Origin: Microgenomates group bacterium
GTDB lineage: Bacteria > Patescibacteriota > Microgenomatia > UBA12405
DNA length: 64,000 bases
Assembly: GCA_049303675.1 (NCBI GenBank)
Contig: JBAQNJ010000001.1
Location: 408,711-472,710, forward strand
Direction: 5' to 3'
This document shows, in pieces, positions 38,895 to 60,229 of this stretch; position 1 is the first letter of the stretch, and the number at the start of each line of letters is the position of its first letter. Under the pieces are notes generated by a model that saw only the letters and a list, made by a program, of their open reading frames with translations, made no database searches and had not been told where the DNA came from. Both the position numbers and the translations under genes were made by a program.

Positions 38895-39148
38895 GTGACA
38901 GAATAAAACAGTTTTCAAATAATCTTGAGATAGTTACTAAAAGATATAAGGGTACAATTGGTCAAGATTTTTCAGAAAAAGTTACCTTAGCATTAGAACG
39001 AGAATTAGCAGAAAACGAGACCTGCCCGCTGGCCCAAGAAATAGAAGCAACTATTGATATTGCAGCCAAATCACCACGAGACCAGTACCTTCGGTTACAA
39101 AGTTTATTTGTGGTATTGACCCAGCGCGAAGAAGCACTTAAGAAATAG
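38891..39148 (+). CDS. hypothetical small protein
   Basis: 85-aa ORF. Confidence 0.3.
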   Translation: MSDRIKQFSNNLEIVTKRYKGTIGQDFSEKVTLALERELAENETCPLAQEIEATIDIAAKSPRDQYLRLQSLFVVLTQREEALKK

Positions 39149-39893
39149 GCAGGAACAATCTCTTGGCATTCTCATCCACAATCTTTTCTGTCTCTTCAAA
39201 GCTCGTTCCCCAAATCTCGGCCACTTTTTGATAGACATATTTTACATACTCTGGTCTATTTTCCTCACCGCGATGTGGCACTGGAGTCAGATAAGGGGAG
39301 TCAGTCTCCAGTAGTAGCCTATCTTTGGGTATATTTTTAACTACTTCTCCCAGTCCCCCTTCATAGGTCAAGTTGCCATCAATCCCCAAATAAAAAGACT
39401 CTGGTATATTTTTTATTCTCTTAATTCCCCCAGTATAGCAATGAATTACTCCCCTCAAATTCGTATAACTATTTAGTATCGCCAATGTCTCCTCCATCGC
39501 CTTGCGACTATGAATTATCAGTGGTTTATCGTATTTTATCGCCAACTCTATCTGCCTGCGAAACAATATCTCCATATCTTTATAGCCTCCCCTGTCAAGA
39601 GGAGGTACCCGCAGGGGGGAGGGGTTTTGACTAAAATCCAACCCACATTCCCCCACCGCTATGATCTCTTTATTGTTTTTTAGTAGTTCATCCAAATTCG
39701 TAATTGTTAATTCGTAATTCGTAATTATTTCTTGTGGATGAATTCCTACTGCTGCCAACAACTTTGGGTTACTCTTGGCCAATTCAACATTATTTTTCGA
39801 ATCTTCCAAGTTGCTACCAGACAATATTACAAACTTCAAACTGTCAACAGTTATCTGTTCACTTGGGCTAATATGTGAGTGTGTGTCTATCAT
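39138..39893 (-). CDS. tatD: TatD family metal-dependent hydrolase (DNase)
   Basis: MIDTHSHI start, GECGLD and LLETDSPYL motifs. Confidence 0.85.
   Translation of the reverse strand: MIDTHSHISPSEQITVDSLKFVILSGSNLEDSKNNVELAKSNPKLLAAVGIHPQEIITNYELTITNLDELLKNNKEIIAVGECGLDFSQNPSPLRVPPLDRGGYKDMEILFRRQIELAIKYDKPLIIHSRKAMEETLAILNSYTNLRGVIHCYTGGIKRIKNIPESFYLGIDGNLTYEGGLGEVVKNIPKDRLLLETDSPYLTPVPHRGEENRPEYVKYVYQKVAEIWGTSFEETEKIVDENAKRLFLPIS
39695..39729. repeat. heptanucleotide tandem repeat (AATTCGT-like, about 5 units) inside tatD coding sequence
   Basis: aattcgt aattgtt aattcgt aattcgt aattatt. Encodes ITNYELTITNLDE on the minus strand. Confidence 0.7.
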
Positions 39894-39909
39894 AATGATA
39901 TTATAAACT

Positions 39910-40743
39910 GTGGCTACAAAAGATAATTCAGTAATAATTTTTCAAAACAACAAGGTTCGTCGAATTTGGGATGAACAAAAAGAGCTATGGTATTTTTCAG
40001 TTGTCGACATTATTGAAATTTTGACTGGGAGTACAAATCCTCAAGTTTACTGGCGTGTCTTGAAAAAGAGACTAATCGATGAGGGATCAAATGAAACCGT
40101 TACAAATTGTAACGGTTTGAAAATGCTCGCAAGTGATGGCAAAATGAGAATTACTGATGTAGCTGATACCCAAAATATGTTTCGAATTATTCAATCAATC
40201 CCGTCTCCAAAAGCCGAACCATTAAAATTATGGCTGGCCAAGGTCGGATATCAACGATTAGAAGAAATTGAGGACCCTGAATTAGCCATCAATCGTGCAT
40301 TACAAAACTTTCTAAAAAAAGGATATTCAAAAGAGTGGATAAATCAAAGGTTAAAAACAATTGAAGTTAGAAAAGAACTAACAGACGAATGGCAGTCACG
40401 AGGAGTTGAAGAAGGTTTAGAATTTGCAATTTTAACAAATGAAATAACCAAAGCATGGTCAGGCAAAACTGTTCGCGAGTATAAAAATTTCAAAAATCTA
40501 AAAAAAGAAAATTTACGAGATAATATGACCAATTTAGAATTGGTCATAAATACACTTGCCGAAGCAACAACCACTGAAATTTCCAAAGATAGAAAACCTA
40601 AAACACTTAATGAAAGTAAACAAATCGCCAACCGCGGTGGACAAATAGCTGGTAACGCCAGAAAGGAAATAGAATTAGAAACGGGCAAGAAAATAGTTTC
40701 TCCCAAAAACGCAAAAAACACAAAAAATGCTCTGTTATCTTGA
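39910..40743 (+). CDS. DinD-like DNA-damage-inducible protein with N-terminal Bro-N domain
   Basis: N-terminus IFQNNKVRRIWDEQKELWYFSVVDIIEILT is a Bro-N/antirepressor-like fold. The C-terminal part (LRDNMTNLELVINTLAEATTTEISKDRKPKTLNESKQIANRGGQIAGNARKEIELETGKKIVSP) resembles E. coli DinD. It is a paralogue of the fragment at 22977. Confidence 0.55.
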   Translation: MATKDNSVIIFQNNKVRRIWDEQKELWYFSVVDIIEILTGSTNPQVYWRVLKKRLIDEGSNETVTNCNGLKMLASDGKMRITDVADTQNMFRIIQSIPSPKAEPLKLWLAKVGYQRLEEIEDPELAINRALQNFLKKGYSKEWINQRLKTIEVRKELTDEWQSRGVEEGLEFAILTNEITKAWSGKTVREYKNFKNLKKENLRDNMTNLELVINTLAEATTTEISKDRKPKTLNESKQIANRGGQIAGNARKEIELETGKKIVSPKNAKNTKNALLS

Positions 40744-40766
40744 CTCTATACTATTATAAGATATAA

Positions 40767-40982
40767 TTGGCTATGACATTAAAAGATGTACTAAAAAAAG
40801 CCCGCGCAGAAGCAGAGTCGCTTCACTCCGATGTCTACCCAGTAGCACAGCAAGTATTTAATAATATTGGTGAAGCAAACCAAGCAGCTGTTGCTCCACA
40901 ACCACTTAAAATGCGTCAAAAAGCAATAATTATTACAAAAAGCACTACTGGACCCGTCTTTGAACATCCAATCAATAACTAG
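40767..40982 (+). CDS. hypothetical small protein
   Basis: 71-aa ORF. Confidence 0.25.
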   Translation: MAMTLKDVLKKARAEAESLHSDVYPVAQQVFNNIGEANQAAVAPQPLKMRQKAIIITKSTTGPVFEHPINN

Positions 40983-42385
40983 CTGATCCTGCCAAAAAGT
41001 CCGGTTTCTAATGGTTTTATTTCACCCTCCAGCGCTCTGGTAATTTTTTCACAAGTTTCCGGCATGACTGGTGTCAGATAGTAGGCCGCGGCTCGTAAAT
41101 TATTTATACACTCGGTCAACACCTCAATCCTTTTAGGATCATTTGGTTCCAGTTTCCACGGGGTCACTACGTTCAATCTATTGTTTGATTCATCAACATA
41201 TTTTCCAAACACCCAATTTATCGCCTCATCTAATTTTAAATTATCAACTAAATTTATAAATTCTTCATCAGCTCGTAACTCGTAACTCGTAACTGTTAAC
41301 TTATCACTTAGTTTACAAACTCGCGAAACCAAATTTCCCAAATTGTTTGCCAAATCGGCATTATATTTCTCCTTGAATCTATTTATCCCCACATCAGAAT
41401 CATTTTCGCTAGGAAAAGATCTGGTAATCAGGTATCTGGCACCATCCACACCAAACAAATCAATCAATTGTTGTGGGCTAATTACATTACCCAAACTTTT
41501 AGACATTTTTTGTGAATCAATCATATAAAAACTATGAGTAAATGTCTTTTTGGGTAAGTCTATTTTGGCCGATAAAAGCATTGCCTGCCAAATAACTGCA
41601 TGGAACCACAATATTTCCTTACCCAACAAATGCAAATTTGCTGGCCAAAAATCTTTTTTACCCTCTACAAATTGGGTGGCACTATAATAATTAATTAAAG
41701 CATCAAACCACACATACACTGTTTGTTTTGTATCCCAGGGGACTGGTATACCCCACTCGACATTTTCTCGCGATAGGGAAATATCATTGACCCCACCTTT
41801 TAATTTTGCCAGTACCTCGGCCCGTTTTCCTGCAGGATATATATAATTAGTTTTATCATCTTCAATCAACTCGATTAATCTTGGCGCATATTTCGATAAT
41901 TTAAAAAACCAATTTTCTTCAGATTTTTTCACCGTTTTTTCTGGTGGGTGAAGTGGACAATGCCCCTCGTCCAAATCAGTTTCGGTTAAGAACTTTTCAC
42001 AACCAATACAATACCAGCCTTCATATTTGGCTTTATAGACATCGTCATTTTCTTTTATTTTAGTCAAAAATTCGGCCACCACTTTTTCGTGTCTTTTATC
42101 AGTCGTTCGTATAAAAAAATCGTTACTTATATTTAAATTTTTCCAGGCATTGATAAATGTTGGGGCAACTTTATCACAATATGTCTGGGTGTCCAAACTC
42201 TCTTTCTGAGCACATTCGGCTACCTTTTGGCCATGTTCATCAGTCCCAGTCAGAAAAAACACCTCATCCCCCAGTTGTCGGTGAAGTCGAGCGAGGACAT
42301 CTGCCGCCACAGTAGTGCAGGTATGCCCAATATGAGGGATATCGTTGATATAGTAAATCGGGGTCGTAATATAAAACTTAGCCAT
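40979..42385 (-). CDS. metG: methionyl-tRNA synthetase (short form)
   Basis: HIGHTCTT (HIGH) and KMSKSLGN (KMSKS) motifs; Zn-knuckle CPLH. Confidence 0.95.
   Translation of the reverse strand: MAKFYITTPIYYINDIPHIGHTCTTVAADVLARLHRQLGDEVFFLTGTDEHGQKVAECAQKESLDTQTYCDKVAPTFINAWKNLNISNDFFIRTTDKRHEKVVAEFLTKIKENDDVYKAKYEGWYCIGCEKFLTETDLDEGHCPLHPPEKTVKKSEENWFFKLSKYAPRLIELIEDDKTNYIYPAGKRAEVLAKLKGGVNDISLSRENVEWGIPVPWDTKQTVYVWFDALINYYSATQFVEGKKDFWPANLHLLGKEILWFHAVIWQAMLLSAKIDLPKKTFTHSFYMIDSQKMSKSLGNVISPQQLIDLFGVDGARYLITRSFPSENDSDVGINRFKEKYNADLANNLGNLVSRVCKLSDKLTVTSYELRADEEFINLVDNLKLDEAINWVFGKYVDESNNRLNVVTPWKLEPNDPKRIEVLTECINNLRAAAYYLTPVMPETCEKITRALEGEIKPLETGLFGRIS
41273..41307. repeat. heptanucleotide tandem repeat (TCGTAAC x3 plus variants) inside metG coding sequence
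   Basis: tcgtaac tcgtaac tcgtaac tgttaac ttatcac. Encodes VTSYELRADEEF on the minus strand. Confidence 0.7.
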
Positions 42386-42388
42386 TAC

Positions 42389-42697
42389 TTATTTTACCGC
42401 TTTTTTGACAGTCTTTTTGACCACTTTCTTGGCAGTTTTCTTAGTTATCTTCTTTATACCCTCTCCTCCGATCTTCTTGCTCAATTGAGATTTCATTCTA
42501 GCAACTTTGTTTTTATGCAAAATTCCCTTTTTGACCGCTTTGTCCAAGATAGATTGGGCTTCCTTCATATTTTCCATGTTGGGTTGACCCAAGAATTTCT
42601 TAACTAATTCTTTAAATTTGTTTTTTATCACCAAGTTTGTCTTTCGATTTTTAATCGATTTTCGCAGTGATTTTTTAGATGAGGCGCTGATTGGCAT
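42389..42697 (-). CDS. rpsT: 30S ribosomal protein S20 with Lys-rich C-terminal tail
   Basis: MPISASSKKSLRKSIKNRKTNL...GILHKNKVARMKSQLSKKI. Track ORF extends to 42805; the internal Met at about 42697 is the likely start. Confidence 0.8.
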   Translation of the reverse strand: MPISASSKKSLRKSIKNRKTNLVIKNKFKELVKKFLGQPNMENMKEAQSILDKAVKKGILHKNKVARMKSQLSKKIGGEGIKKITKKTAKKVVKKTVKKAVK

Positions 42698-42758
42698 GAC
42701 ATGTATTCTAACTGATAATAAATTCAAATACAAGAATTTATCTTGATTACATAATATA

Positions 42759-44378
42759 ATGACAATCATGTCTCTTCGCGATCTTTTCAAATATGTCAGT
42801 CTCAAGAAATCACACAGTATTTTTTCAGCTAGTCTTGTCCTCGGGATTACCTTCGGATTATCGGCTATTCTCGGGTTTCTCCGGAGTCGTTTTCTCTATG
42901 CTCAGTTTTTCAACTGCTGTGTCTTAGAGCTCGATGCTTACAATGCAGCCTTCCGGTTGCCCGATTTAATCTTCAAATTACTAGTTACCGGTGCACTTTC
43001 AGCGTCATTTATCCCTGTCTTTAGCTCATATTTACACAAAGATGAACACAAGGCATACGAAGTAGCCTCATCTGTGATAAATCTACTTCTGATTGTCTTT
43101 ACCCTCGCTTCACTCTTGGTCTTGATCTTTGCCAAGCCTTTGTCTGGCATAATTGCCCACGGGTTCACCCCCGAGCAACTAGTACTCATGACTAGTCTGA
43201 CACGCATTTTATTAATAGCCCAGGTTTTCTTCCTCATTAGCAACTTCTTGACTGGTATGCTCCAGGTTCACCAGGTATTTATTATCCCCGCCCTTTCACC
43301 CATTGTTTACAATATTTTTATTATTCTCTCTATCTTCATTTTAGCCCCGACCATGGGTATTTATGGAGTAGCCATTGGCTCAGTCGTTGGTGCCTTTTTT
43401 CATTTAGCCATTCAAATTCCCACCGCCAAGGCCATGGGAGTCAAGTATCGTTTTGAAATCAAAACTCAGCTCGCTGGAGTCAAAGAAGTCATTAGACTCA
43501 TGTTACCTCGCAGTTTATCCCTAGGATTAGGTGAAATCGAGAATACAGTGACTTTGTTCTTCGCTAGCAGTTTGGCAGCCGGCTCTATCTCTCTTCTCAA
43601 TCTAGCCATGCAACTAATGTACTTACCCAGTCGAATTTTTGGGACTACAGTCGGTCAAGCATCACTCCCTATTCTTTCCAAAAACATCGCCCGCAACGAG
43701 CTAGATTTATTTAGAGATACTGTTCGTAAGACAATTTCCCAAAGTTTGTTTATTGCCGTTCCTATCACTGTTTTAGTTCTGGTCCATCGCCTAGCTATTA
43801 TCCGCATTGCCTTTGGTACCCGCCAATTTCCGTGGGCTGCTACTCTGCTGACAGCCAAAACTTTGGCCTATCTTACTCCAGCCATTGTTTGTCAAGCTGT
43901 CATTCAAATACTCGTCAGAGCCTTTTATGCCATCCACGATACCAAAACTCCACTTAAAGTTTCTTTCTTCTCTCTGGCCATCAACATTTCCTCAGCCTAT
44001 TTTCTGATTAATTACACCGATCTCGGAATTCTGGGACTAGCCATCAGTGCCTCACTTGGGAATCTCACCCAATGCCTTGGTTTATTTTATCTGTTCATCA
44101 AAACAGTTGACGGCGCTGGATGGCAGCAGACTTATTGGCACTATTTCAAAATATTACTGGCCTCTTTTATATTGGGCCTTACTTCTTGGGTCTGTGTTCA
44201 GTTTTTTGATTTATTTGTGCTCGATACCTCCCGAACCATCAACTTAATAATTTTATCCTCTCTCTCCGTTTTAATAAGTATATTTGTCTATTACTTCATT
44301 GCTATTTATCTACAAATTTCCGAAATATATGATTATCAACACTATTTTGGCAAGCTAACTAGATTTTTCAAAAGATAA
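42759..44378 (+). CDS. murJ: lipid II flippase MurJ (MviN)
   Basis: 539 aa, about 14 TM segments; LPRSLSLGLGEIENTV...GQASLPILS conserved region. Confidence 0.85.
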   Translation: MTIMSLRDLFKYVSLKKSHSIFSASLVLGITFGLSAILGFLRSRFLYAQFFNCCVLELDAYNAAFRLPDLIFKLLVTGALSASFIPVFSSYLHKDEHKAYEVASSVINLLLIVFTLASLLVLIFAKPLSGIIAHGFTPEQLVLMTSLTRILLIAQVFFLISNFLTGMLQVHQVFIIPALSPIVYNIFIILSIFILAPTMGIYGVAIGSVVGAFFHLAIQIPTAKAMGVKYRFEIKTQLAGVKEVIRLMLPRSLSLGLGEIENTVTLFFASSLAAGSISLLNLAMQLMYLPSRIFGTTVGQASLPILSKNIARNELDLFRDTVRKTISQSLFIAVPITVLVLVHRLAIIRIAFGTRQFPWAATLLTAKTLAYLTPAIVCQAVIQILVRAFYAIHDTKTPLKVSFFSLAINISSAYFLINYTDLGILGLAISASLGNLTQCLGLFYLFIKTVDGAGWQQTYWHYFKILLASFILGLTSWVCVQFFDLFVLDTSRTINLIILSSLSVLISIFVYYFIAIYLQISEIYDYQHYFGKLTRFFKR

Positions 44379-44427
44379 TCTTTCTGTTTGTGTTTTAATT
44401 TGGCCCAAATATATATATACTGTTTAT

Positions 44428-44991
44428 ATGCCAGTCAAAAAGGAGATGTCTTTTTTACCAGACGAAGAGGATGTCAACTCTCTCTCGGCCCGTGTCATCC
44501 GCTGGGTCACCACTGTTGGGCGTTTTGTTATTGTCTTTACCGAGCTAATAGTTATTTGCGCTTTTTTATCCCGTTTTTGGCTCGACCGCACCAACTCTGA
44601 TTTATCCGAAGTTGTCCGTCAGCAAAAAGCCATTTTAGAAAGCACCTCAGAGTTTGAAAATGATTATGCCCAGCTCCAAAGACGCCTAGAACTTATCCAG
44701 AAAATATATGCTTCTCAGCCAGAATATCAGACCAAAGTTGATACTCTCATCCAGAGTACCCCCTCCGATATCAATTACAACAGTCTTACTATTACCCACG
44801 ATCCCGACAAAAAAGAAGTTTCCGCCATCATCAATCTCTCTGCCTATCAAGAATCATCCATTGTCAACTTTATCACCAATTTAATTGCCAACCCCAAAAT
44901 AAGCTCAGTCGATATCAAGAAAATTGAAAAAAGGTCCAATGATAATAAATACAATGTCAATTTGTCATTAGTTTTTTCCCAAAAAGTATGA
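44428..44991 (+). CDS. PilN-like type IV pilus/competence assembly protein
   Basis: Short cytoplasmic N-terminus, single TM, periplasmic coiled-coil domain; 187 aa. Confidence 0.4.
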   Translation: MPVKKEMSFLPDEEDVNSLSARVIRWVTTVGRFVIVFTELIVICAFLSRFWLDRTNSDLSEVVRQQKAILESTSEFENDYAQLQRRLELIQKIYASQPEYQTKVDTLIQSTPSDINYNSLTITHDPDKKEVSAIINLSAYQESSIVNFITNLIANPKISSVDIKKIEKRSNDNKYNVNLSLVFSQKV

Positions 44992-45641
44992 GCCTAAACA
45001 TCGACAATCAGGTCAGTCGAATGAGGCCATTGTTTGATTTTATAAAAAAACAACAAGAAAATCGTCAATTCGTTAGGTCGGTTGAAATTACCGCCACTTT
45101 TGTCTTAATTACCTTTTTTCTAATTTTTGCCGTCAGACCAACCATCATCACTATCGCCAGTCTTCGTGGTGATATCGAATCGAAGAAAATCCTCAAGTCA
45201 GAATTAAAAAACAAAATCAATCAAGTTATCCAGGCACAAGACCTCTTTTCCCAAGTCCAAGAGCGATATCAGGTCATAAACAGTAGTCTCCCCGATAGGC
45301 CCAACTTTTATGATGCTGCCGACATAATTACCCAAATTTCCCAAAAAAACAGCATCACCCTCAACTCAATATTATTTGATTTAGAGGTAGTGCCATATAA
45401 AAACGAACCGAGTGTCAAATCATACAGCCTCCAAATCGGAGTTAGTGGATCTTTTGACAGTGCCCTCAATATTGCCTCAGAGTTACTCAAAAACCGTCGT
45501 ACCGACAACATTAGTTCCCTCAACTTTACCACTGGTCTTTCTCCCAATCAGAAAAGCGCCAGCCCCAGCGCCAGTTCCGGAGTCATCACCTCATTTTCCA
45601 CTCATTTTTATTATTGGCCAGCCACTTATGGAAAAAAATAA
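44988..45641 (+). CDS. PilO-like type IV pilus/competence assembly protein
   Basis: Single TM followed by a coiled coil and an alpha/beta domain; translationally coupled to the PilN-like gene. Confidence 0.4.
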   Translation: MSLNIDNQVSRMRPLFDFIKKQQENRQFVRSVEITATFVLITFFLIFAVRPTIITIASLRGDIESKKILKSELKNKINQVIQAQDLFSQVQERYQVINSSLPDRPNFYDAADIITQISQKNSITLNSILFDLEVVPYKNEPSVKSYSLQIGVSGSFDSALNIASELLKNRRTDNISSLNFTTGLSPNQKSASPSASSGVITSFSTHFYYWPATYGKK

Positions 45642-45831
45642 AATATCGGGATATCTCCTTTTAATTAGTGTTTTTACCTTTGCAGCCGTCTTTATTTATA
45701 TTGTTCAAAAAAGTTACGATGGTATGATGAAACCAATCCGTGACGTCAAACAGAGTGTCATAATTAAGCCAATTAATCCCAATTTTGATCTTAGTACTTT
45801 AGATGAAATTGAAAAAAGAGGTACCCCATGA
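45628..45831 (+). CDS. small single-TM protein
   Basis: MEKNKISGYLLLISVFTFAAVFIYIV; 67 aa. Track ORF 45412..45831 overlaps pilO-like; the internal ATG is more likely. Confidence 0.3.
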   Translation: MEKNKISGYLLLISVFTFAAVFIYIVQKSYDGMMKPIRDVKQSVIIKPINPNFDLSTLDEIEKRGTP

Positions 45832-47120
45832 AAAAGGAATTTAAATTCCCTACTATTATTGGTGTTGGGTTTTTGCTCATCTCTGTTTTTGTAGGCGTCA
45901 AGTATTCCACTAGAACAACTACTACCAGTTCAAACGCCTCAGGTAGTTGTCAGCCTGACAATGTCCAGATAACCAATCTCACCCACAATAGCGCTAGCTT
46001 ATCATTTTTAACTTCATCCAAATGTCAGTCCACCGTCTCTCTTGACAATCAAATTATCAAGGATCTCAAGGCAGAGACATTAAATATACCCGAATTATCT
46101 TCTCGGATTCATTATTTTTTTATCAATAATCTCAAGGAAAAGACCACCTACAACTATTCCATTATTTCTGGAGGCAGTACTTACCAAGAAAAATCCTACA
46201 GTTTTATCACTGGCTCTACGCCGATTAGTGGTACTCCCAACTCAAATTTGGCCTGGGGTAAGGTATTCTCACCCGACGGCAAAACCCCGGGTAACGCTCT
46301 TGTTTTTCTAAATATATCTGGGGCCTATCCCCTATCTTCGATGGTCACTACCAATGGCAACTGGTCGATTTCTCTGGCCAGTAGTTTTAATGATACTCAG
46401 ACAAATTGGTTCACCCTCTCGGATACTGTCTCCTCCGAAGATATTATTGTCTATTCCGAAGATGGAGTTTTTACTCAAGTTACCAATTCTACATCACGCA
46501 ATAATCCTGTCCCCGATATCATTATTGGTACCAATTCTCTGGATACTACAAATTATGACACTGCTAAAAATAGTAGTACCGGTCAAGTCGACTCTATCTC
46601 TCCAGTTGTCGATCAAAAAAAAGTCGATATTGCCAATCCTCGCGAGGGTGATATGCTCAATGTCTTGCGACCTGATTTTTTCGGCAGTGCCCCCAACAGT
46701 ACCCAAGTCATTATTGAAGTCCACTCTGACACAGTCATCAATGGCCAAACAACCTCTGACACCAGTGGTAATTGGCATTGGTCACCCCCCCAGAATCTTG
46801 AGCCAGGTCAGCATACTATCACTGTCAAATCACTCAATAAAAACACTGGTATCTGGGAAACAATCACCCGCTCATTTACAGTTCTAGCCTCCGACAACCT
46901 TTCCAGCCCCAACTTCGAGGCATCTGGATCTGCTTCTACACCCTCACCCGCAGCCACATTAGTTTCCACCCTAGCCCCCACGAAGACTCCGGTTCCTACA
47001 ATTCGGACTGCCCACCCTAGTACTACCATCCAGCCGCCAGTTACTGCCAATTATCTGCCTACCATCGTCATATTTATTTTCTCTTTTCTTTTTATATTAA
47101 TCTCGTTTAAACTATTGTAG
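45828..47120 (+). CDS. secreted Ser/Thr-rich surface protein with FN3-like repeats and C-terminal TM anchor
   Basis: N-terminal TM/signal; FN3-like VQITNLTHNSASLSF; C-terminal hydrophobic tail LPTIVIFIFSFLFILISFKLL. Confidence 0.45.
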   Translation: MKKEFKFPTIIGVGFLLISVFVGVKYSTRTTTTSSNASGSCQPDNVQITNLTHNSASLSFLTSSKCQSTVSLDNQIIKDLKAETLNIPELSSRIHYFFINNLKEKTTYNYSIISGGSTYQEKSYSFITGSTPISGTPNSNLAWGKVFSPDGKTPGNALVFLNISGAYPLSSMVTTNGNWSISLASSFNDTQTNWFTLSDTVSSEDIIVYSEDGVFTQVTNSTSRNNPVPDIIIGTNSLDTTNYDTAKNSSTGQVDSISPVVDQKKVDIANPREGDMLNVLRPDFFGSAPNSTQVIIEVHSDTVINGQTTSDTSGNWHWSPPQNLEPGQHTITVKSLNKNTGIWETITRSFTVLASDNLSSPNFEASGSASTPSPAATLVSTLAPTKTPVPTIRTAHPSTTIQPPVTANYLPTIVIFIFSFLFILISFKLL

Positions 47121-48061: not shown

Positions 48062-48062
48062 A

Positions 48063-48986
48063 GTGAAAGGTAATATAAAAATATTTTCATTACTAGAAGC
48101 ACTTCGACCGAGCCAGTGGATCAAAAATTTAAGTTTATTTGCCGCCGTTATTCTCAATGGACAGCTCTTCAACCTCGAGAGTTTAGTTCCCAGTATTTTA
48201 GCTTTTGTTACATTTTGTTTTTTATCATCATCCTCATATTTAGTGAATGATATTTTAGACAAAGATAAGGATATTCAGCACCCCTACAAAAAAAATCGCC
48301 CCATAGCTAGGGGAGATGTCTCTACCACTGTGGCTACATTTGCCAGCTTTTTTCTGCTCTTTACTGGTCTAGGTATTGCCATGATTATTAGCTCAGAATT
48401 TTTTTTCATCTCGCTTCTCTTTATTATTTTGCAGTATTCCTATTCGTTCTTTTTCAAGAAAAAAGCAGTTGTGGATATCGCCGGAATATCCTTGTTTTTT
48501 ATTATACGTGCCTTTGCCGGTGAAATTGCCTCTGGCTACCACTTACCTATCTGGATTATGTTGACAGTCATTTTTCTGTCTTTATTTATTGCCAGTGGAA
48601 AACGCCGCAGTGAACTCATCAATTCTGGAAAGAAGACCCGTGCCGCACTCAGTGGATATGGTCGGTCACTTTTAAATTTTTATACCACGATGTTTGCTGT
48701 TTGTACTCTAATTGGTTATTCTATGTACGCTTTTTTTGAAGACAAACTAAAGTTTCAGGGCATTATTCATGAATTCTTGTTGGATAATTTTCCTGCTGCT
48801 ATCGATCGAAAGTGGTACATGTTGTCCATCATTCCTGTTATCTACGGAATTATGCGCTACGGACAAATAATTTTTGAAATGCAAGAGGGTGAGAGGCCCG
48901 AACGAGCCATTGCCACCGATATACCACTAATAATTTCCGTGCTCTCTTGGGGGTTGATGATAATTACTATTATTTATGTCCTTTAG
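48063..48986 (+). CDS. UbiA-family prenyltransferase, decaprenyl-phosphate phosphoribosyltransferase (DPPR synthase)-like
   Basis: N-terminal LRPSQWIKNLSLFAAV (RPxQWxKN signature of the DPPR synthase subfamily), NDILDKDKD (NDxxDxxxD) and HPYKKNRPIARGDVS. Confidence 0.75.
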   Translation: MKGNIKIFSLLEALRPSQWIKNLSLFAAVILNGQLFNLESLVPSILAFVTFCFLSSSSYLVNDILDKDKDIQHPYKKNRPIARGDVSTTVATFASFFLLFTGLGIAMIISSEFFFISLLFIILQYSYSFFFKKKAVVDIAGISLFFIIRAFAGEIASGYHLPIWIMLTVIFLSLFIASGKRRSELINSGKKTRAALSGYGRSLLNFYTTMFAVCTLIGYSMYAFFEDKLKFQGIIHEFLLDNFPAAIDRKWYMLSIIPVIYGIMRYGQIIFEMQEGERPERAIATDIPLIISVLSWGLMIITIIYVL

Positions 48987-50487
48987 TTCTGGTTTGTTAT
49001 TTTTTATTGCTTTAATTACCCGATTTTTTGGTTTAACTTGGGGTGGTGGTTTCCCTTTCCATCCAGATGAAAACAACATGGTCAATGCCATTGTGCAAAT
49101 GACCCCTATTAATTTGAATCCTCATTTTTTCGCCTATGGCCAATTTCCCCTATATTTAGGATATATTACCCAGCTAATTCTCGGGTTGCCTCACAACGCT
49201 ATCGCTATTACCTATGTACTCCGTTTCTGGTCAGCCATCTTTTCCACCTTGTCCGTTTATCTTTTTTATCTTATAAACCGGCAACTATTTCCCAAAATAA
49301 ATCCTTTTATTGCCACCTTACTTTTTATATTTACTCCGGGACTCATCCAAATAGCACATTTTGGTACCACTGAGAGTTTGTTGGTTCTTATTTTTTTGTC
49401 GACTATATATCTCTCCCTAAAACTCTATGGTCAGCCATTTCAATACAAATATTATTTTTGGCTAGCTTTAATATGTGGCATTGGAGTCTCTTCAAAACTC
49501 AGCTCCATAGTCTTTATTTTTCCAATATTGTTAGTTTCTCTGATAAGTTTTTTTAAACATAATAAAAAGCTTCATGTAGTTTTTTTTACTTTTTACTTTT
49601 TACTATTTACTTTAGTATTTTTTATATTATTTTCTCCATTCAATATTTTGTCCAGAGCTGATTTTCTCTCAGCCCTTAAATATGAGACCGAAGTCGCCAC
49701 CGGCACATTGTCAGTGTTTTATACTACTCAGTTTAAAAACACTTTACCTTATATATATCAAATAACCCATATCTTTCCATATGTTATTGGACTGCCCCTT
49801 AGTCTATTCTCCTTATTTGGTTTATGTATGTCGTTTAGAAAATATCATCAGTCCCTGTTCATAGTCTATGCCTCAGTTATTTTTTATTTTCTCTATTTTG
49901 GCCAGACATATGTCAAATGGACCCGTTTTATGTCACCTATATTTTTTATATTTCCCCTTATCGCCGCCATCTTTATTAATCAAATCCACTCCAAGAATTA
50001 TAGATATTTTGTTCTGATTGCTGCCATTCTCCCTGGGATATTTTTCCTGAAACTATATCTGTATCCCGATATTAGAATCACCGCTTCAAAATGGATAATC
50101 GAAAATCTACCCGACAAAACAACCATTTTGTCCGAAGGTGGCAATGTCGTCAACATTCCGGTTCTGGAAAATAACTTTGAAATAGACAATTACGACTTTT
50201 ATCAATACCATGTTGACACCTTATCCAAATCTATCGCCAAATCTGATTACATTATCATTCCTTCACGTCGAGTTTTTAAGAATTATAACTATACCTATTA
50301 CCAACATTTATTTGATGGCACACTCGGCTTTTCAAAAATCAAAGAGTTTGTCCCCGACAAATATCTGTTTTTTAATCCAGAAAATGCCGAGGAAACATGG
50401 ACAGTCTTCGACCGTCCTACCATCAGAATTTACCAGAAAACCACTCAACTGTCCCTTGAAGAATACTCTAGTTTATTAGAAAATTAA
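48976..50487 (+). CDS. GT-C polytopic membrane glycosyltransferase (GT39/GT83-like)
   Basis: First loop FHPDENNMVN...NPHFFAYGQFPLY; more than 10 TM segments; paralogue of 50506. Confidence 0.6.
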   Translation: MSFSSGLLFFIALITRFFGLTWGGGFPFHPDENNMVNAIVQMTPINLNPHFFAYGQFPLYLGYITQLILGLPHNAIAITYVLRFWSAIFSTLSVYLFYLINRQLFPKINPFIATLLFIFTPGLIQIAHFGTTESLLVLIFLSTIYLSLKLYGQPFQYKYYFWLALICGIGVSSKLSSIVFIFPILLVSLISFFKHNKKLHVVFFTFYFLLFTLVFFILFSPFNILSRADFLSALKYETEVATGTLSVFYTTQFKNTLPYIYQITHIFPYVIGLPLSLFSLFGLCMSFRKYHQSLFIVYASVIFYFLYFGQTYVKWTRFMSPIFFIFPLIAAIFINQIHSKNYRYFVLIAAILPGIFFLKLYLYPDIRITASKWIIENLPDKTTILSEGGNVVNIPVLENNFEIDNYDFYQYHVDTLSKSIAKSDYIIIPSRRVFKNYNYTYYQHLFDGTLGFSKIKEFVPDKYLFFNPENAEETWTVFDRPTIRIYQKTTQLSLEEYSSLLEN

Positions 50488-50545
50488 AAATTTGTTAATT
50501 AAAAATTGAATAAAAATTTAAAATTAAAAATTAAAAATTATTATC
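50487..50545. repeat. AT-rich (aaattaaaaatt)n repeat forming the leader/N-terminus of the GT-C gene
   Basis: Contains a 28-mer identical to korA 28673-28700. Encodes (TTG)NKNLKLKIKNYY. Confidence 0.7.
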
Positions 50546-52260
50546 CAATAGTAATAATTTTTATGTTGGCACTGTCTGTTAGATTATATGGTCTCAATTG
50601 GGATCAGGGCCAACACCTCCATCCCGATGAGAGAATGATTGTCATGGTCACCGAGAAAATATCTATCCCCACCACAAACCTCTTTTCGGTCGATTCTACC
50701 CTCAATCCTCATTTTTTTGCCTATGGCTCACTGCCAATCTATCTCTTGAAGTTCACTTCGTCATTACTCGTACCCATTTTTCCCCAAATTGGTTCTTATG
50801 AGCAAATAAATTTGTTAGGTCGAGTTATCTCGGCAATTTTTGACTCACTTACAGTTCTTCTGATTTTCCATATTTGCCAACGAATGTTCGAGAACACCCG
50901 ACAAAGCTTATTGGCTGCCTTAGTCTATACAGTCTCCATTTTACCCATTCAGTTGTCTCATTTTTATGCCGTAGACACTATTCTCACTTTTTTTATCTTC
51001 TTCACCCTTTTACAGCTTATAGCCTATTTTCAAAATCAAAAAATATTTAATTTACTGCTTGCTAGTATTGGTATTGGATTGTCTCTGGCTACAAAAATTA
51101 GTGCCACTGTCTTAGTTGCCTCACTCGGTACTAGTCTTGTTGCCGGTATCTTACTCACAATTAGAAATCAAATTTTTTCCCACAACCAACCGCTCCATCA
51201 AAAAATATCATCATTTATTGGGCACATATTCAGTCTAAAAAAGCTCAGACATTCACGTCTCTCAATAATAATTAAAGTATTTTGTTTGCTAATATTTACT
51301 TCTACTATAGCTGCGGTTGTTTTTATAGTTTGTGAACCATTTGCCCTCATCGATTACCCCAATTTTATTCGGCAGATAATGGAACAGCAGGCCATGACCA
51401 AAAACGCCTTTGTTTTTCCCTACACTCTCCAGTATGTCAACACCACTCCGTATTTATACCAATTAGAAAATATATTTTTATGGGGATTAGGTCCAATTAT
51501 TGGGACATTATCTTTTATTGGGTTTATCATCGTTAATATCAAACTCGTCAAAGGTCTTATTGTCCCTGGCAATGATCAATCAGAGGGTGCCCAATTAATT
51601 ATCCTCACATTTTTTTTGGCATATTTTTTCGTTGTGGGTGGTTTTGCTATCAAGTTCATGCGGTATTGTTTACCTCTTTATCCAATTTTTATAATTTACG
51701 CTGCCCATTTACTTACTAGTATTAAATCAAAGTTTGTTGTTTTATTTATTTTCTTAGGACATCTATGTTTATTGTTTGCTTTTTTGGCTATTTATCGTTT
51801 GCCCAACACCCGTGTCACCGCCACCAATTGGATAAACAGTCAGGTTCCCCAAGGTTCAACTATTCTCATCGAGCATTGGGACGATGCCCTACCCCTAGGT
51901 TATTTAAACAATCTTAATCAAATCTCTTTGCCGCTTTATGATAGTGACAGTGATCCCCATAAATGGAACTTTATCAACCAAATGTTGGTCCGTGGCGACT
52001 ACATAATTATTGCCAGTAACCGCCTCTCTACCCCACTTCCAAAATTAGTCAACTGTGACCAGTTACCCGAAGACAAGTGTTATCCCCTTACTGCTCGGTA
52101 TTATCGTGATTTATTCGCGGGTAATCTAGGTTACACAAAAGTCGCCGAATTTACCAGCTATCCTACTTTATTTGGATTTTCTGTCAACGATCAATCAGCT
52201 GATGAGTCCTTTACTGTCTATGATCATCCTCAAATAATGATATTTAAAAAGACATTTTAG
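50506..52260 (+). CDS. GT-C polytopic membrane glycosyltransferase (GT39/GT83-like), paralogue
   Basis: LHPDERMIVM...NPHFFAYGSLPIY; 584 aa. TTG start per track; the start is uncertain and the next ATG is at about 50563. Confidence 0.6.
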   Translation: MNKNLKLKIKNYYPIVIIFMLALSVRLYGLNWDQGQHLHPDERMIVMVTEKISIPTTNLFSVDSTLNPHFFAYGSLPIYLLKFTSSLLVPIFPQIGSYEQINLLGRVISAIFDSLTVLLIFHICQRMFENTRQSLLAALVYTVSILPIQLSHFYAVDTILTFFIFFTLLQLIAYFQNQKIFNLLLASIGIGLSLATKISATVLVASLGTSLVAGILLTIRNQIFSHNQPLHQKISSFIGHIFSLKKLRHSRLSIIIKVFCLLIFTSTIAAVVFIVCEPFALIDYPNFIRQIMEQQAMTKNAFVFPYTLQYVNTTPYLYQLENIFLWGLGPIIGTLSFIGFIIVNIKLVKGLIVPGNDQSEGAQLIILTFFLAYFFVVGGFAIKFMRYCLPLYPIFIIYAAHLLTSIKSKFVVLFIFLGHLCLLFAFLAIYRLPNTRVTATNWINSQVPQGSTILIEHWDDALPLGYLNNLNQISLPLYDSDSDPHKWNFINQMLVRGDYIIIASNRLSTPLPKLVNCDQLPEDKCYPLTARYYRDLFAGNLGYTKVAEFTSYPTLFGFSVNDQSADESFTVYDHPQIMIFKKTF

Positions 52261-52279
52261 ATCATTTAAATATGATATA

Positions 52280-52873
52280 TTGGTTAATACAAAAACAAAT
52301 ATGAATTTACTCTTTTGGCAGCCACAAAAAAATTACTATCAAATTATAGCGTCATCAGTTTTTGGAAAATTTTTACTAATATCTTCAAACTATATTACCT
52401 GGATTTTCCTAATTTATCCCTCCTATCTACTGGTCAAATTCGATTCCAATATATTTTGGCAACTACTATTTGCCACAGTTCTAGGAGAAATAATTGAGAA
52501 GGTTGTTAAACTGAAGAAATACTGGAAAAGACCGACCTTCGCCAAAAGTATTGATGTGCCTTACGGATTGATTAAGTCGTGGTATCTCACCGGTTCATTT
52601 CCCTCCGGCCACACCATCAAAGCCACTTTTTTTTTGTTGTTGCTCCTCCACTACCAACTATTTTTTTTGGCCTTTATACTCGTAATTGTCCCCCTCTTAT
52701 ATTTTCGTGTCTTAATTGGTTTTCACTATCCCATAGACATTATTGGAGGAATTGTCATTGGTGCTGTTATTTACTTTCTGGTAACCTATATCCAAATGCC
52801 ACCAGTCATAAATCAATATATCCAAAATATTTTTTCTGTCATTTTTTATTATCCGATTAAGCTAGGAATATAA
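52280..52873 (+). CDS. PAP2-superfamily phosphatase (polyprenyl-phosphate/phospholipid phosphatase)
   Basis: PAP2 motifs KRPTF...PSGH...RVLIGFHYPIDIIGG (KxxxxxxRP, PSGH, SRxxxxxHxxxD). Confidence 0.7.
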   Translation: MVNTKTNMNLLFWQPQKNYYQIIASSVFGKFLLISSNYITWIFLIYPSYLLVKFDSNIFWQLLFATVLGEIIEKVVKLKKYWKRPTFAKSIDVPYGLIKSWYLTGSFPSGHTIKATFFLLLLLHYQLFFLAFILVIVPLLYFRVLIGFHYPIDIIGGIVIGAVIYFLVTYIQMPPVINQYIQNIFSVIFYYPIKLGI

Positions 52874-52874
52874 C

Positions 52875-53921
52875 ATGTCCCTGCCAAAAACTATATTAAT
52901 CACTGGCGGATCGGGATTTCTCGGTATAAATTTGACCCGTTTTTTATTGAAAAAAGGTTACCGAGTAATTGTTTACGACATTGCCAAATTTGACTATCCC
53001 GAGAAAGACAAGGTAACTTGCCTGATCGCCGATGTCAGGGATAGGACTGCTCTAAAAAGGGCTCTTAGAGGTGTCGATGTCGTTGTCTCTGCTGCGGCAG
53101 CACTACCCCTCTATCCCCGCACCGAAATACTATCAACAACTATTGATGGTACTCGAAATGTTTTAGAGATATCTCAGAGTTTGGGAATCAAACGGGTCAT
53201 TTATATTTCGTCTACCGCTGTCTATGGAATCCCCGATCACCATCCTCTGTTAGAGGATGACAAATTATATGGTGTCGGTGCCTATGGAGAAGCCAAGGTG
53301 GAGGCAGAAAATATCTGCAATCAATACCGTCAAAATGGTTTTTCTGTTCCGGTCATTCGACCAAAATCCTTTGTTGGCCCAGAGAGATTGGGAGTATTTT
53401 CCTTATTCTACGATTGGGCCAAGGATGGTAAAAACTTCCCTATGATGGGGGATGGTAAAAATAAGTACCAACTACTCGACGTCGAAGACTTATGTCAAGC
53501 CATCTTTACCTGTATTACCGGTAAAGATAGTCAGGTAAACCACACTTTCAATATTGGAGCCAAGGAGTTCACCACCATGAAAGCAGACTATCAGGCAGTA
53601 CTAGACTTTGCCGGTTTTCACAAAAAAATAATTTGTTTTCCCAAAAAACCAATGATAACTGCCTTAAGAATATTAGAATTTTTTCATCTCTCTCCTCTTT
53701 ACAAATGGGTCTACGAAACTGCCGGTGAAGACTCATTTGTTTCTATCGCTAAGGCCGAAAAACTGTTAGGTTACAAACCAAAGTTTTCCAATAAACAGGC
53801 TCTAATCAGAAACTATAAGTGGTATTTGGCCAACTTAGACAAGTTCACCGGACTTTCTGGTGTCAGTCATCGAGTGCCCTGGAGTCAAGGTATACTAACA
53901 TTAGTCAAAATATGTTTCTAA
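52875..53921 (+). CDS. NAD-dependent epimerase/dehydratase (extended SDR)
   Basis: ILITGGSGFLG (GxxGxxG) and YGEAK (YxxxK); 348 aa. Confidence 0.8.
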   Translation: MSLPKTILITGGSGFLGINLTRFLLKKGYRVIVYDIAKFDYPEKDKVTCLIADVRDRTALKRALRGVDVVVSAAAALPLYPRTEILSTTIDGTRNVLEISQSLGIKRVIYISSTAVYGIPDHHPLLEDDKLYGVGAYGEAKVEAENICNQYRQNGFSVPVIRPKSFVGPERLGVFSLFYDWAKDGKNFPMMGDGKNKYQLLDVEDLCQAIFTCITGKDSQVNHTFNIGAKEFTTMKADYQAVLDFAGFHKKIICFPKKPMITALRILEFFHLSPLYKWVYETAGEDSFVSIAKAEKLLGYKPKFSNKQALIRNYKWYLANLDKFTGLSGVSHRVPWSQGILTLVKICF

Positions 53922-55984
53922 CTGACTTCAACTATATCTTCTTCTGGTGGCTGGTCTATTTTGTCTTTGGGATGGCAGGACTACCGCTAACTTTTTATTT
54001 TTTTGGTAAATTTTGGGACAAAGGCTATATTTTTGCCAAGACAATTGGCTTAGTTATCACCACCTTTTTTATTTTGGTTTTTGGTATTTTCAAATTAATT
54101 CCCTTCTCTTCTGTCTCAGTAGTTTTTTTGATGATGGCCACTGCCTTAATCGGGCTTATTTTACTTAAGCAAAAAAATACTTTGAATACTTTTAATAGTA
54201 TTATCAGAACACATTGGAAAATATTTTTATTTGAAGAAATTATCTTTTTATTAATTCTTACCCTCTGGAGTTATATTCGTGGTTTTGCCCCCGACATCGA
54301 AGGGCTAGAAAAATTTATGGACTGGGGATTTGTCAATTCGGCTCTTCGTTCTCAATTCATGCCCCCCCTTGATATGTGGTTCTCTGGTTTCCCCATAAAT
54401 TATTATTATTTTGGTCACCTCGAAATTGCCGTCTTGGCCAAAATAAGTACCCTTGATTCAGCTATAGTCTACAATTTAGCCATTGCTTCAACTTGTGCCC
54501 TGACTTTTGTTAATTCATTTTCCCTCGTGAGTAACCTCATTGCCAAATCCCTTTCAAAAATAAATTTACGATTAGTTGTACTCGGTGGGCTACTCTCTTC
54601 CCTGTTGTTAACTTTTGGCGGTAATCTACATCCTCTTTACAAAATTGGTGCCAACATAATCAAAAACGAAAGTCGGCTGATTATAAATCAAAAAACACTG
54701 ACTCAGGCTTCTTCATCTTATTGGTATCCGGATGCGACTCGGTTTATCGGCTTTGATCCAGATGTCCCTGACAAAACTATTCATGAATTTCCTTTATATA
54801 GCTTCGTCGTCGCCGATCTTCATGGACACATGAACGACATCCCCAACATATTATTGTTTATGGCGGTTTTACTTAGCTTATTTTTATTTAATTCTATTCA
54901 GAGTTTCTCTTGGGTCTTGATTCTTCCTTCCGCCTTTCTATTGTCTGTCGCCTACATGACCAATGCTTGGGATTTTGCAGTTTATGGACTTCTCTATGGC
55001 ATTTTTAGTGTTTTGTCACTATGGAACAGCCACAATTTTCGTCAGGCCATCATTGTCACCACCATCAACGGTCTGCTTGTCATTGTCTGTTGGTATATTT
55101 TCACCATACCTTTTTCACTCAATTTTTCTCCCATGACAGAGGGTCTCCGTTTATCTGATTCCCATTCACCTTTTTATCAACTTTTCGTGCTTTATGGCGG
55201 CTTTTGGCTAATTGCCCTGCCCTTTATTTTATTGGCAATAAAAAAAATGTTTTTTCATCACTTTTCACTAATCACTGATCACTTTATTCTTGCTCTAATT
55301 ATTACTGCCACCATTCTAATTATTATTCCCGAAGTTGGTTATATTAAGGATATTTATATATTTGAGCATCGTCGGGCCAACACCATGTTCAAACTGGTCT
55401 ATCAGGCTTTTATCTTGTATTCTTTAGTTTCTGGCTACATATTGGTCAAATTTCGACAAAACCTGTTTGCCAAAATCATTATCATTTTAGTCATGGCTAG
55501 CCATCTAATTTATCCTTTTTTTGCTATCAAGGGCTATTATCCCCTGACTGAATATAAAGGTATCTGGGGTCTCAACTTTCTCAAAAACAACTACCCCGAC
55601 AATTTGACTGCTATTAATTGGCTTAACAAAAATATCTCCGGCCAACCCGTAATTTTGGAGGCTGTCGGCGATAGTTACACTACCTTTAATCAGGTTTCCA
55701 TGGCTACTGGTTTACCTACTGTTGAGGGCTGGATAGTTCACGAATGGCTCTGGCGCGGCGGTTATGACCAGCCCAGTGCTCGTCAAAACGATGTCCAAAA
55801 AATATATGAATCTAGTGACCCAACCGAAGTTAGAAGTCTACTCCAAAAATATTCAGTCGAATATATTTTTGTAGGTGACAAAGAGAGAGAAAAATATTCA
55901 ACTCTGGACGAAAAAATGTTTGAAAATATCGGTGCCAAATCTGTCTTTCAGTCAGGGCAAACAAAAGTTTATAAAATATTTTAA
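53912..55984 (+). CDS. large polytopic membrane protein, putative GT-C-like glycosyltransferase with C-terminal soluble domain
   Basis: About 690 aa, more than 12 TM segments, YYYFGHLEIA loop, C-terminal extracytoplasmic domain of about 170 aa. Track ORF starts at 53819 inside the epimerase gene; the ATG at 53912 is more likely. Confidence 0.45.
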   Translation: MFLTDFNYIFFWWLVYFVFGMAGLPLTFYFFGKFWDKGYIFAKTIGLVITTFFILVFGIFKLIPFSSVSVVFLMMATALIGLILLKQKNTLNTFNSIIRTHWKIFLFEEIIFLLILTLWSYIRGFAPDIEGLEKFMDWGFVNSALRSQFMPPLDMWFSGFPINYYYFGHLEIAVLAKISTLDSAIVYNLAIASTCALTFVNSFSLVSNLIAKSLSKINLRLVVLGGLLSSLLLTFGGNLHPLYKIGANIIKNESRLIINQKTLTQASSSYWYPDATRFIGFDPDVPDKTIHEFPLYSFVVADLHGHMNDIPNILLFMAVLLSLFLFNSIQSFSWVLILPSAFLLSVAYMTNAWDFAVYGLLYGIFSVLSLWNSHNFRQAIIVTTINGLLVIVCWYIFTIPFSLNFSPMTEGLRLSDSHSPFYQLFVLYGGFWLIALPFILLAIKKMFFHHFSLITDHFILALIITATILIIIPEVGYIKDIYIFEHRRANTMFKLVYQAFILYSLVSGYILVKFRQNLFAKIIIILVMASHLIYPFFAIKGYYPLTEYKGIWGLNFLKNNYPDNLTAINWLNKNISGQPVILEAVGDSYTTFNQVSMATGLPTVEGWIVHEWLWRGGYDQPSARQNDVQKIYESSDPTEVRSLLQKYSVEYIFVGDKEREKYSTLDEKMFENIGAKSVFQSGQTKVYKIF

Positions 55985-55994
55985 GTGTCTTCCT

Positions 55995-56030
55995 TGTTAA
56001 TTCGTAATTCGTAATTGATAATTAGTAATT
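55995..56030. repeat. heptanucleotide tandem repeat (TCGTAAT x2 plus variants), intergenic upstream of uvrD
   Basis: tgttaat tcgtaat tcgtaat tgataat tagtaat. Same family as the repeats at 39695 and 41273. Confidence 0.7.
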
Positions 56031-60228: not shown

Positions 60229-60229
60229 T

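Follow-up and report, generated by a model that had tools for sequence, protein, structure and literature searches.

Heptanucleotide tandem repeats inside tatD and metG and in front of uvrD/pcrA in a Microgenomates-group bacterium

Introduction

Heptanucleotides are the most abundant class of long simple sequence repeats (LSSRs), and a 7-nt polymerase-slippage ruler has been proposed as their cause, both according to the summaries of Mrazek 2007 given in PMC4679880 and PMC4692102; as the former summarises it, LSSRs in coding regions have mainly units of multiples of three. TAACTGA direct repeats are known from marine Beggiatoaceae, Cyanobacteria and Bacteroidetes, where most of them stand immediately 5' of start codons, often with no Shine-Dalgarno sequence; horizontal spread is suspected, the transfer mechanism is not known, and a hypothesis of Csp, S1 or Csr binding has been put forward (MacGregor 2015, PMC4679880). 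The GGGAATC/GGGGAYT heptameric repeats of Xanthomonas and Nostoc are G-rich, quadruplex-capable and intergenic (Rehm 2015, PMC4692102). Here, we analysed a 64-kb stretch of contig JBAQNJ010000001.1 (the window) from a Microgenomates-group bacterium of the candidate phyla radiation (CPR), whose nearest relatives are named Candidatus Shapirobacteria. In this window, tandem heptamers of the type TCGTAAY lie inside the genes of a TatD-family hydrolase (tatD) and of methionyl-tRNA synthetase (MetRS, metG), and directly before the gene of a UvrD/PcrA-like helicase (uvrD/pcrA).

Tandem heptamers are also known as the short tandemly repeated repetitive sequences (STRRs) of heterocystous cyanobacteria, with CCCCAGT, TTGGTCA and CAACAGT as the canonical units of STRR1-3. 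Vioque is said to have found, in 1997, heptanucleotide STRRs inside a variable part of cyanobacterial rnpB, an essential gene, with unrelated STRRs at one site in close strains, and Elhai reportedly described, in 2008, tiny mobile elements, the Nostoc small dispersed repeats (SDR), embedded in tandem heptamers. The Rickettsia palindromic elements (RPE) are small elements inserted in-frame in protein genes. Since 2007, heptanucleotides have been known to dominate the long repeats of bacteria, and specific heptamers such as TAACTGA and those of the STRRs are distributed across phyla. The repeat class is thus a known one; what is new here is its presence in a CPR bacterium, its translation in essential genes, and its cassette-like, length-neutral turnover.

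Results

The three arrays, L1 in tatD, L2 in metG and L3 before uvrD/pcrA (Table 1), all carry TCGTAAY on the same (+) strand. Specifically, the plus-strand units are AATTCGT AATTGTT AATTCGT AATTCGT AATTATT in L1, AGCTCGT AACTCGT AACTCGT AACTGTT AACTTAT in L2, and CCTTGTT AATTCGT AATTCGT AATTGAT AATTAGT AATTAAA in L3. In the sense of the host genes, L1 reads AATAATT ACGAATT ACGAATT AACAATT ACGAATT and is translated as IITNYELTITN (about residues 56-66 of the TatD-family protein), and L2 reads ATAAGTT AACAGTT ACGAGTT ACGAGTT ACGAGCT and codes for MetRS residues 361-372 (DKLTVTSYELRA), with LTVTSYELRADEEF as the array peptide. Tandem Repeats Finder (TRF) assigns period 7 to all three arrays, with 3.3-4.7 copies and 84-100% matches; by eye, the tract at each locus measures about 35 nt, or five units, of which the outer ones are degenerate. 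The pattern TSKTAAYTCGTAAYTCGTAAY, with up to three mismatches, has seven overlapping matches in the window, solely in L1-L3, against 0.04 expected from shuffles. The single heptamer TCGTAAT is found 11 times in the 64 kb, five of them within the arrays, and shows no enrichment outside them; the signal therefore lies in the tandem arrangement. L1 and L3 have an exact 23-mer in common (TTGTTAATTCGTAATTCGTAATT), and one TGTTAAY variant unit is present in each of the three arrays. The arrays are identical in two assemblies, the NCBI metagenome-assembled genome GCA_049287145.1 and a Logan contig of SRR28062879, and a single sequencing read is far longer than any of them, which rules out an assembly artefact. 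GC skew is negative in 31 of the 32 2-kb bins of the window, which therefore lies within one replichore.

An earlier note, made from the letters of this DNA, had described a recurrent family of 7-nt tandem repeats, with two arrays translated inside housekeeping genes and a third one intergenic. The family is real, and the translations given for it are correct. Its position for L1 is exact, while L2, which it had put at 41273-41307, is found at 41270-41304.

Period 7 is the sole strongly over-represented tandem period, in the window as well as in 822 kb of sequence from its relatives, as determined by a simple self-match scan against shuffled sequence. The window holds seven period-7 arrays, compared with 0.0-0.05 in shuffles; other periods that are not multiples have 0-2 arrays, and besides 7 only periods 14 and 21 have more than two. 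The relatives (68 non-redundant loci) hold 22 period-7 arrays against 0.3 in shuffles, and period 7 ranks first among them; behind it come only periods 12, 18 and 24, all of them compatible with codons. TRF lists nine period-7 arrays in the window, which is about 93% coding, and six of the nine are inside open reading frames (ORFs). The arrays show two properties of heptanucleotide LSSRs or STRRs: 7-nt units stand head-to-tail in at least three copies, and the excess of period 7 involves several different units in the window as well as in the relatives' loci.

At the MetRS site, the DNA repeat rather than the peptide is what gets maintained. The rare codons ACG (4% of Thr codons in the window genes), TAC (25% of Tyr) and CGA (18% of Arg) are retained in the arrays of every lineage, and therefore maintenance acts on the DNA. 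Between lineages, the codons of conserved residues have a third-position identity of 0.48-0.61, near saturation; at the array site, however, relatives L123 and L139, with 72% amino-acid identity, agree in 26 of 30 nt, and the window agrees with these two in 24/30 and 23/30 nt, but with its closest relatives L125 and L126 in just 10/30 and 14/30 nt. The units behind these numbers are TTAACAG (TTACGAG)x3 in the window, (TTACGAA)x3 TTACGAG in L123/124, TTAAAAA TTACGAA TTACGAA TTACAAA in L139-142, and (CTTCAAA)x3 CTTCAGA in L125, the closest relative (about 86-88% amino-acid identity), with degenerate heptamer units in L126 and L128. In all of these lineages the heptamers share their first and last nucleotide position, and the segment measures 25 residues. 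L173 has a period-8 array instead (AATCTACG x4, at about 6420-6460) and a segment one codon longer, and about nine further lineages have a G/C-rich hairpin insert in place of an array, with 2-7 extra residues. Sites of the ITNYELRI type are scattered on a rough neighbour-joining tree of MetRS.

The segment that receives these repeats is tolerant of sequence change. Measured between SRV and the conserved LIDNLKFDEA motif in about 65 orthologues, it has 25 residues in almost all of them, with or without an array, and it is the most variable segment among MetRS orthologues. In the AlphaFold (AF2) model of MetRS (pLDDT, the predicted local distance difference test score, 86), residues 361-372 adopt a coil that links helix 334-359 to helix 374-381, both of the anticodon-binding domain. 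The MetRS of T. thermophilus, for which a structure has been solved, is longer than the window protein at the array peptide.

Turnover at these sites takes place as length-neutral replacement of whole patches at the DNA level, and the tracts are internally homogeneous. The MetRS proteins P0018 and P0025 differ in nine of 466 residues, seven of which fall within a 13-residue stretch at the array site; the direction of change in this clade is ambiguous on the rough tree. At the DNA level, the MetRS genes of L338 and L339 are 98% identical and of equal length, and 18 of their 24 differences in 1401 nt fall within 57 nt at the array; L338 has (ACAAATT)3(ACGAATT)2 there, and L339 is without an array. 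The differences in this patch are not adenine-specific, unlike the signature of diversity-generating retroelements. Of the outside sequences, the distant L139 comes closest to the L338 patch (53/58 nt), yet the flanks of L338 match L139 no better than those of its sister L339 do, and therefore neither import nor writing in situ is proven. In tatD, L201 of the same close clade has a 27-residue loop with an array and L338/L339 have a 22-residue loop without one, between flanks that are about 93% identical. Variation of copy number in 7-nt steps is absent from the array-bearing orthologues with in-register heptamers and from repeated samples (L139-142, L123/124, L001/L002), and no population polymorphism was seen at the arrays, the sole second assembly compared (Logan SRR28062879) being identical.

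The TatD site behaves in a similar manner, with more freedom in length. The loop measures 17 to 36 residues among relatives; lineages with an array share a 27-residue type, and most others have 17-24 residues. The unit is AATTACG in the window, L128 and L201, AATTAGG in L126, AATTATG/AATTACA in L172, GATAACT in L139, TCAGATN in L158 and AAGTCAA in L200. The window array peptide aligns essentially without gaps to T. maritima TatD.

L3 fills most of a 52-nt spacer from the stop of a DUF2298 membrane-protein gene (55984) to the uvrD/pcrA ATG. It has TAA stops in all three frames, and no Shine-Dalgarno sequence is visible. Most relatives are without an array in this spacer; it measures 0, 12 or 18 nt in the array-less L205, L207 and L208, and the one relative on which the comparison of spacer length rests, L206, has a spacer as long as that of the window, which aligns with it in part (CTTGTTAA...GATAATTA.TAAT) but is not regular. 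Taken together, the tracts sit in sequence-tolerant protein segments or in a spacer.

These comparisons also bear on what the earlier note had proposed for the arrays. The idea that both peptides lie in loops agrees with the predicted coil of MetRS, and in TatD the peptide occupies a hypervariable segment. Regarding the peptides as insertions is contradicted for MetRS by the near-constant segment and by the longer T. thermophilus protein; for TatD it fails against T. maritima, and stands only as 3-6 residues over the array-less 21-24-residue loops of relatives. The arrays have five units (35 nt), which is not a multiple of three, and they behave like patches that were overwritten rather than like inserted units. 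Slipped-strand variation of length was found in no orthologue or repeated sample, while the suspected DNA-level, "mobile-like" behaviour was borne out by the patch swaps in L338/L339 and L201 and by a MetRS-site similarity that departs from lineage.

The G/C-rich inserts mentioned above belong to a second family of small elements. In the window, a two-hairpin mini-element is translated in TatD, where it adds 10-11 residues compared with PDB homologues and L123, and two further copies are present (Table 1). The family measures 35-45 nt, with the consensus CAATCYCCCTAAA-TCCCTCTT-TGAC-AAGAGGGA-CTT and the loop TTGACA. Its stems covary in three versions, TCCCTCTT/AAGAGGGA, TCTCCCTT/AAGGGAGA and TCCCCCTT/AAGGGGGA, over at least nine independent loci, and copies are found in relatives L127, L130, L136, L137, L139, L152, L154, L158, L162, L166, L170, L172, L189 and L201. 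The elements are read in-frame in either orientation, and their presence or absence varies in orthologous MetRS and TatD genes. Additionally, the hairpin stands exactly at the MetRS heptamer site in the roughly nine lineages, and two lineages have it at a second site in TatD. Dispersed copies, compensatory stem changes and presence/absence polymorphism, as in in-frame palindromic mini-elements of the RPE/SDR type, are thus all observed; a scan of the whole window at Rfam gathering thresholds returned no family, and the element has no Rfam match. Its patchy distribution suggests that it may be mobile.

Table 1 Features of the window (positions in the 64-kb stretch).
Feature	Position	Strand	Context
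TatD-family hydrolase gene	39138-39893	-	251 aa; hosts L1 and a G/C-rich hairpin insert
Array L1	39695-39729	- (sense)	inside TatD-family ORF 39138-39893
Two-hairpin mini-element AACCCCTCCCCCCTGCGGGTACCTCCTCTTGACAGGGGAGGC	39585-39626	-	G/C-rich; in-frame in TatD as NPSPLRVPPLDRGG
MetRS gene	40979-42385	-	468 aa; hosts L2
Array L2	41270-41304	- (sense)	inside MetRS ORF 40979-42385
Array L3	55992-56033	+	intergenic, 3 nt before uvrD/pcrA ATG (56037)
UvrD/PcrA-like helicase gene	56037-57914	+	directly downstream of L3
Hairpin mini-element copy	~22298-22337		in MgsA-like AAA ATPase ORF 21772-22980
Hairpin mini-element copy	61604-61653		C-terminal tail of amidase ORF 60191-61651
TATCTGA-type array	16769-16803	-	inside PMT_2 glycosyltransferase ORF 16622-17860
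A/T-rich AATTAAA/AATTTAA period-7 array	28643-28701	+	inside POR-family ORF 28133-29746
A/T-rich AATTAAA-type period-7 array	29767-29836		mostly intergenic; last bases overlap start of ORF 29826-30446
TTTTTAC x4 array	49583-49613	+	inside PMT-family ORF 48976-50487
A/T-rich AAAATTA-type period-7 array	50475-50540		junction of two PMT-family genes
Weaker ATCACTN array	55257-55283	+	inside DUF2298 ORF

Besides the period-7 arrays, the window has a 36-nt-period repeat of 2.5 copies (32713-32802, ORF 32086-33720) that codes for a Thr/Pro-rich low-complexity stretch and looks like an ordinary linker-type coding repeat. In the window, and likewise in the P0011 contig, metG and tatD are separated by a Bro-N domain gene (39910-40743 in the window); genes of this kind are often phage-derived. 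In L123/L124 the same interval holds a short-chain dehydrogenase gene and small ORFs and not the Bro-N gene.

The heptamer also occurs far outside this lineage. A three-unit pattern is found at no fewer than 120 loci, i.e. at least 120, in a collection of species-representative genomes, compared with a chance expectation of about 9 as a uniform-composition estimate. Among the matches listed, which do not include the source genome, about half belong to Nostocales, and the others to Bacteroidota, Acidobacteriota, Chloroflexota, Planctomycetota, Akkermansia and others, with one Shapirobacteria genome. At the listed loci there are also 129 arrays of other heptamers, which draw on 89 further units (in the non-cyanobacterial subset, 71 arrays from 52 units), and a handful of arrays with other periods. 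Among these matches, arrays in other phyla are mostly intergenic; open frames of at least 100 codons contain 4 of the 47 cyanobacterial arrays and 14 of the 59 from other groups. In several genomes of Bacteroidota, Acidobacteriota and Akkermansia (L036, L041, L081, L098, L043, L064), (TCGTAAT)n arrays lie within larger repeated units, either with identical flanks in two copies or as a palindrome flanked by inverted arrays, which suggests carriers resembling miniature inverted-repeat transposable elements.

In the viral collection IMG/VR, exact 21-mers of (TAACTGA)3 were found in 107 stretches, of (TCGTAAT)3 in 65 and of (TCGTAAC)3 in 7; the hexamer and octamer versions of the unit were found in 21 and 3 stretches, and three composition-matched heptamers in 22, 14 and 4, a number of controls that makes the comparison suggestive. 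The high-GC (0.55-0.65) viral contigs L225, L233 (IMGVR_UViG_3300009868_000138), L238 and L243 carry 4-7 A/T-rich (ATTACGA)n arrays each, typically directly 5' of a Shine-Dalgarno sequence and ATG, and also contain pairs of arrays in inverted orientation, about 18 nt apart, which could form long hairpins.

Discussion

We favour the explanation that the arrays are bacterial heptanucleotide tandem repeats of the LSSR/STRR type, which turn over by slippage and conversion at the DNA level in permissive sites, and we give it a probability of roughly 0.55. Replication slippage or template switching with a ruler of 7 nt would create the tracts and keep them homogeneous, and short-patch gene conversion, both among units and among the arrays within a genome, would add to their homogenisation; conversion between arrays is suggested because the window arrays share the TGTTAAY variant unit and L1 and L3 share the 23-mer. 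At a coding density of 93%, tracts would persist only in permissive loops and spacers. Since (TCGTAAY)3 has TAA in all three frames, a constraint that can be read straight from the sequence, only the ACGAATT-sense orientation can survive in genes, and this explains both the common orientation and the shared T(N/S)YEL peptide. Toward the host proteins, the repeats are most likely neutral or selfish. Speculatively, L3 might affect the translation initiation of uvrD, as proposed for the TAACTGA repeats.

Several observations weigh against this explanation. Slippage alone does not account for the retention or re-creation of a unit across synonymously saturated lineages, nor for its recurrence across phyla, both in genomes and in IMG/VR. 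No copy-number polymorphism is seen in orthologues or repeated samples, although it would be a product of slippage; in genes, but not in the spacer, selection against frameshifts could conceal it. Moreover, the substitutions flanking the L338 patch fit recombination or error-prone repair better than slippage in situ. The unexplained persistence of the unit and its cross-phylum recurrence keep alive two rivals, the writing of cassettes and the binding of the heptamer by a protein.

The former rival, to which we would give about one chance in five, holds that tracts of about 35 nt and hairpins are copied into defined sites as mobile cassettes that overwrite what is there without changing its length, through a dedicated enzyme, an RNA or single-stranded DNA intermediate, or short-patch recombination with DNA from co-occurring lineages. 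The patchwise replacement between near-identical genes, the site similarity decoupled from phylogeny, the variant unit common to all three window arrays, the close match of the L338 patch to distant L139, and the hairpins that stand exactly at the MetRS array site in some lineages and at a second TatD site in two all fit such copying, as do the findings ascribed to Vioque and Elhai above. However, a Pfam scan of eight window ORFs gave no transposase, reverse transcriptase or template, no search aimed at them having been made; the flanks of L338 do not point to a donor; and a look of site specificity could also result if tracts survive nowhere but in permissive loops. Somewhat more doubtful is the proposal that the arrays are DNA or mRNA binding sites for a heptamer-reading protein, with the unit kept by sequence-specific selection; candidates would be an OB-fold Csp/S1-like protein, one per 7 nt, or a nucleoid protein that reads AATT every 7 bp. 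Retention of the unit at saturated synonymous sites and the preference for it in IMG/VR agree with this proposal, as do the position of L3 by a start codon, that of the viral arrays 5' of Shine-Dalgarno and ATG, and the like placement of TAACTGA repeats, for which a Csp/S1/Csr hypothesis exists (PMC4679880). Against it, most orthologues lack any array and the closest relatives have an unrelated heptamer or a hairpin at the site, and therefore the arrays are dispensable; the uvrD spacer of L205, L207 and L208 has none, relative to the start codon, L3 has the opposite strand orientation to the arrays of the viral contigs, and no candidate binding protein was identified.

The remaining rivals are effectively excluded. 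Phase variation, in which 7-nt slippage would switch genes on and off, has in its favour that frameshift switches are classically built from units whose length is no multiple of three; yet the hosts are housekeeping genes with arrays in their middle or late part, segment length is constant in the in-register orthologues and repeated samples, and a frameshift in MetRS would be lethal. Selection on the protein for (I/V)T(N/S)YELR(I/V), with the DNA repeat as a by-product, could be read from the recurrence of this peptide in many MetRS orthologues and in TatD, but it is at odds with the rare codons kept in every lineage and with a segment that is otherwise the most variable of the protein, and any frame of (ACGAATT)3 yields the same cyclic peptide. 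Chance or composition is countered by the seven pattern matches where shuffles give 0.04.

Beyond the explanation by slippage and conversion, a bolder and improbable reading is that a sequence-specific system shared across phyla, working by patch conversion or tiny cassettes, writes a small set of related heptamers (TAAYTSR) into defined sites, loops of essential genes among them. Its tracts of about 35 nt would overwrite what is there at unchanged length, with the TTGACA-loop hairpins as alternative cargo. If true, this would be a kind of templated genome editing, restricted to certain sites, that has not been described before, and its agents would be the smallest mobile units known. In any case, the essential-gene flanks can be aligned across dozens of lineages, so that gains, unit switches and hairpin replacements can be dated and counted, and a change of length is lethal in the host genes, so that slippage can be told apart from conversion or "writing". 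The routine translation of heptamer repeats and hairpin elements as loops of core enzymes also matters for annotating and aligning CPR proteins.

Iterons were considered as well and rejected: these are 17-22-bp repeats by a rep gene or origin, and here 7-nt units lie inside metG and tatD, with no rep gene among the called genes around metG-tatD or the eight Pfam-scanned window ORFs.

Among known systems, the TAACTGA repeats resemble these arrays in that a single heptamer recurs in numerous short tandem sets, each of 2-6 or more units, with a patchy distribution across phyla, including Cyanobacteria and Bacteroidetes. L3, like many of the TAACTGA sets, lies a few nucleotides 5' of a start codon, unlike the intragenic L1 and L2. 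The (GATAACT)n array in the TatD gene of L139 (5000-5800) is the TAACTGA repeat in another rotation, the TATCTGA array of the window is one mismatch away from it, and the window MetRS unit TAACTCG is intermediate between TAATTCG and TAACTGA; these unit sequences hint that TAATTCG, TAACTCG and TAACTGA may form one heptamer super-family, TAAYTSR. In contrast to TAACTGA, the unit here is TCGTAAY, two to three positions apart from it, the carrier is a CPR bacterium, and two of the three arrays are translated in housekeeping genes, whereas TAACTGA sets lie overwhelmingly between genes. Here, orthologous sites switch units and exchange patches without a change of length, neither of which is described for TAACTGA.

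The STRRs of heterocystous cyanobacteria are likewise dispersed 7-nt tandem arrays, and AATTACG arrays are present in many Nostocales genomes; the host here is not a heterocystous cyanobacterium, however, and the units are not those of STRR1-3. Unlike the STRRs of rnpB, the present arrays have protein-coding hosts, so that frame and stops constrain their orientation and length. They depart from the LSSR survey, as far as it is summarised, by standing in coding regions (six of nine in the window) without length variation. With the repeats of Xanthomonas and Nostoc they have in common a lineage-specific preferred heptamer, inverted array pairs, and turnover of arrays that keep their place in related species, which in Xanthomonas and Nostoc stand between the same genes and change in sequence and length; they differ in being A/T-rich and partly coding. 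Finally, the hairpin mini-element resembles the Nostoc SDR and the Rickettsia RPE in its very small size, its compensatory stem changes and its heptamer-adjacent or in-frame position, and differs from them in its sequence family, with the loop TTGACA, and in its host phylum.

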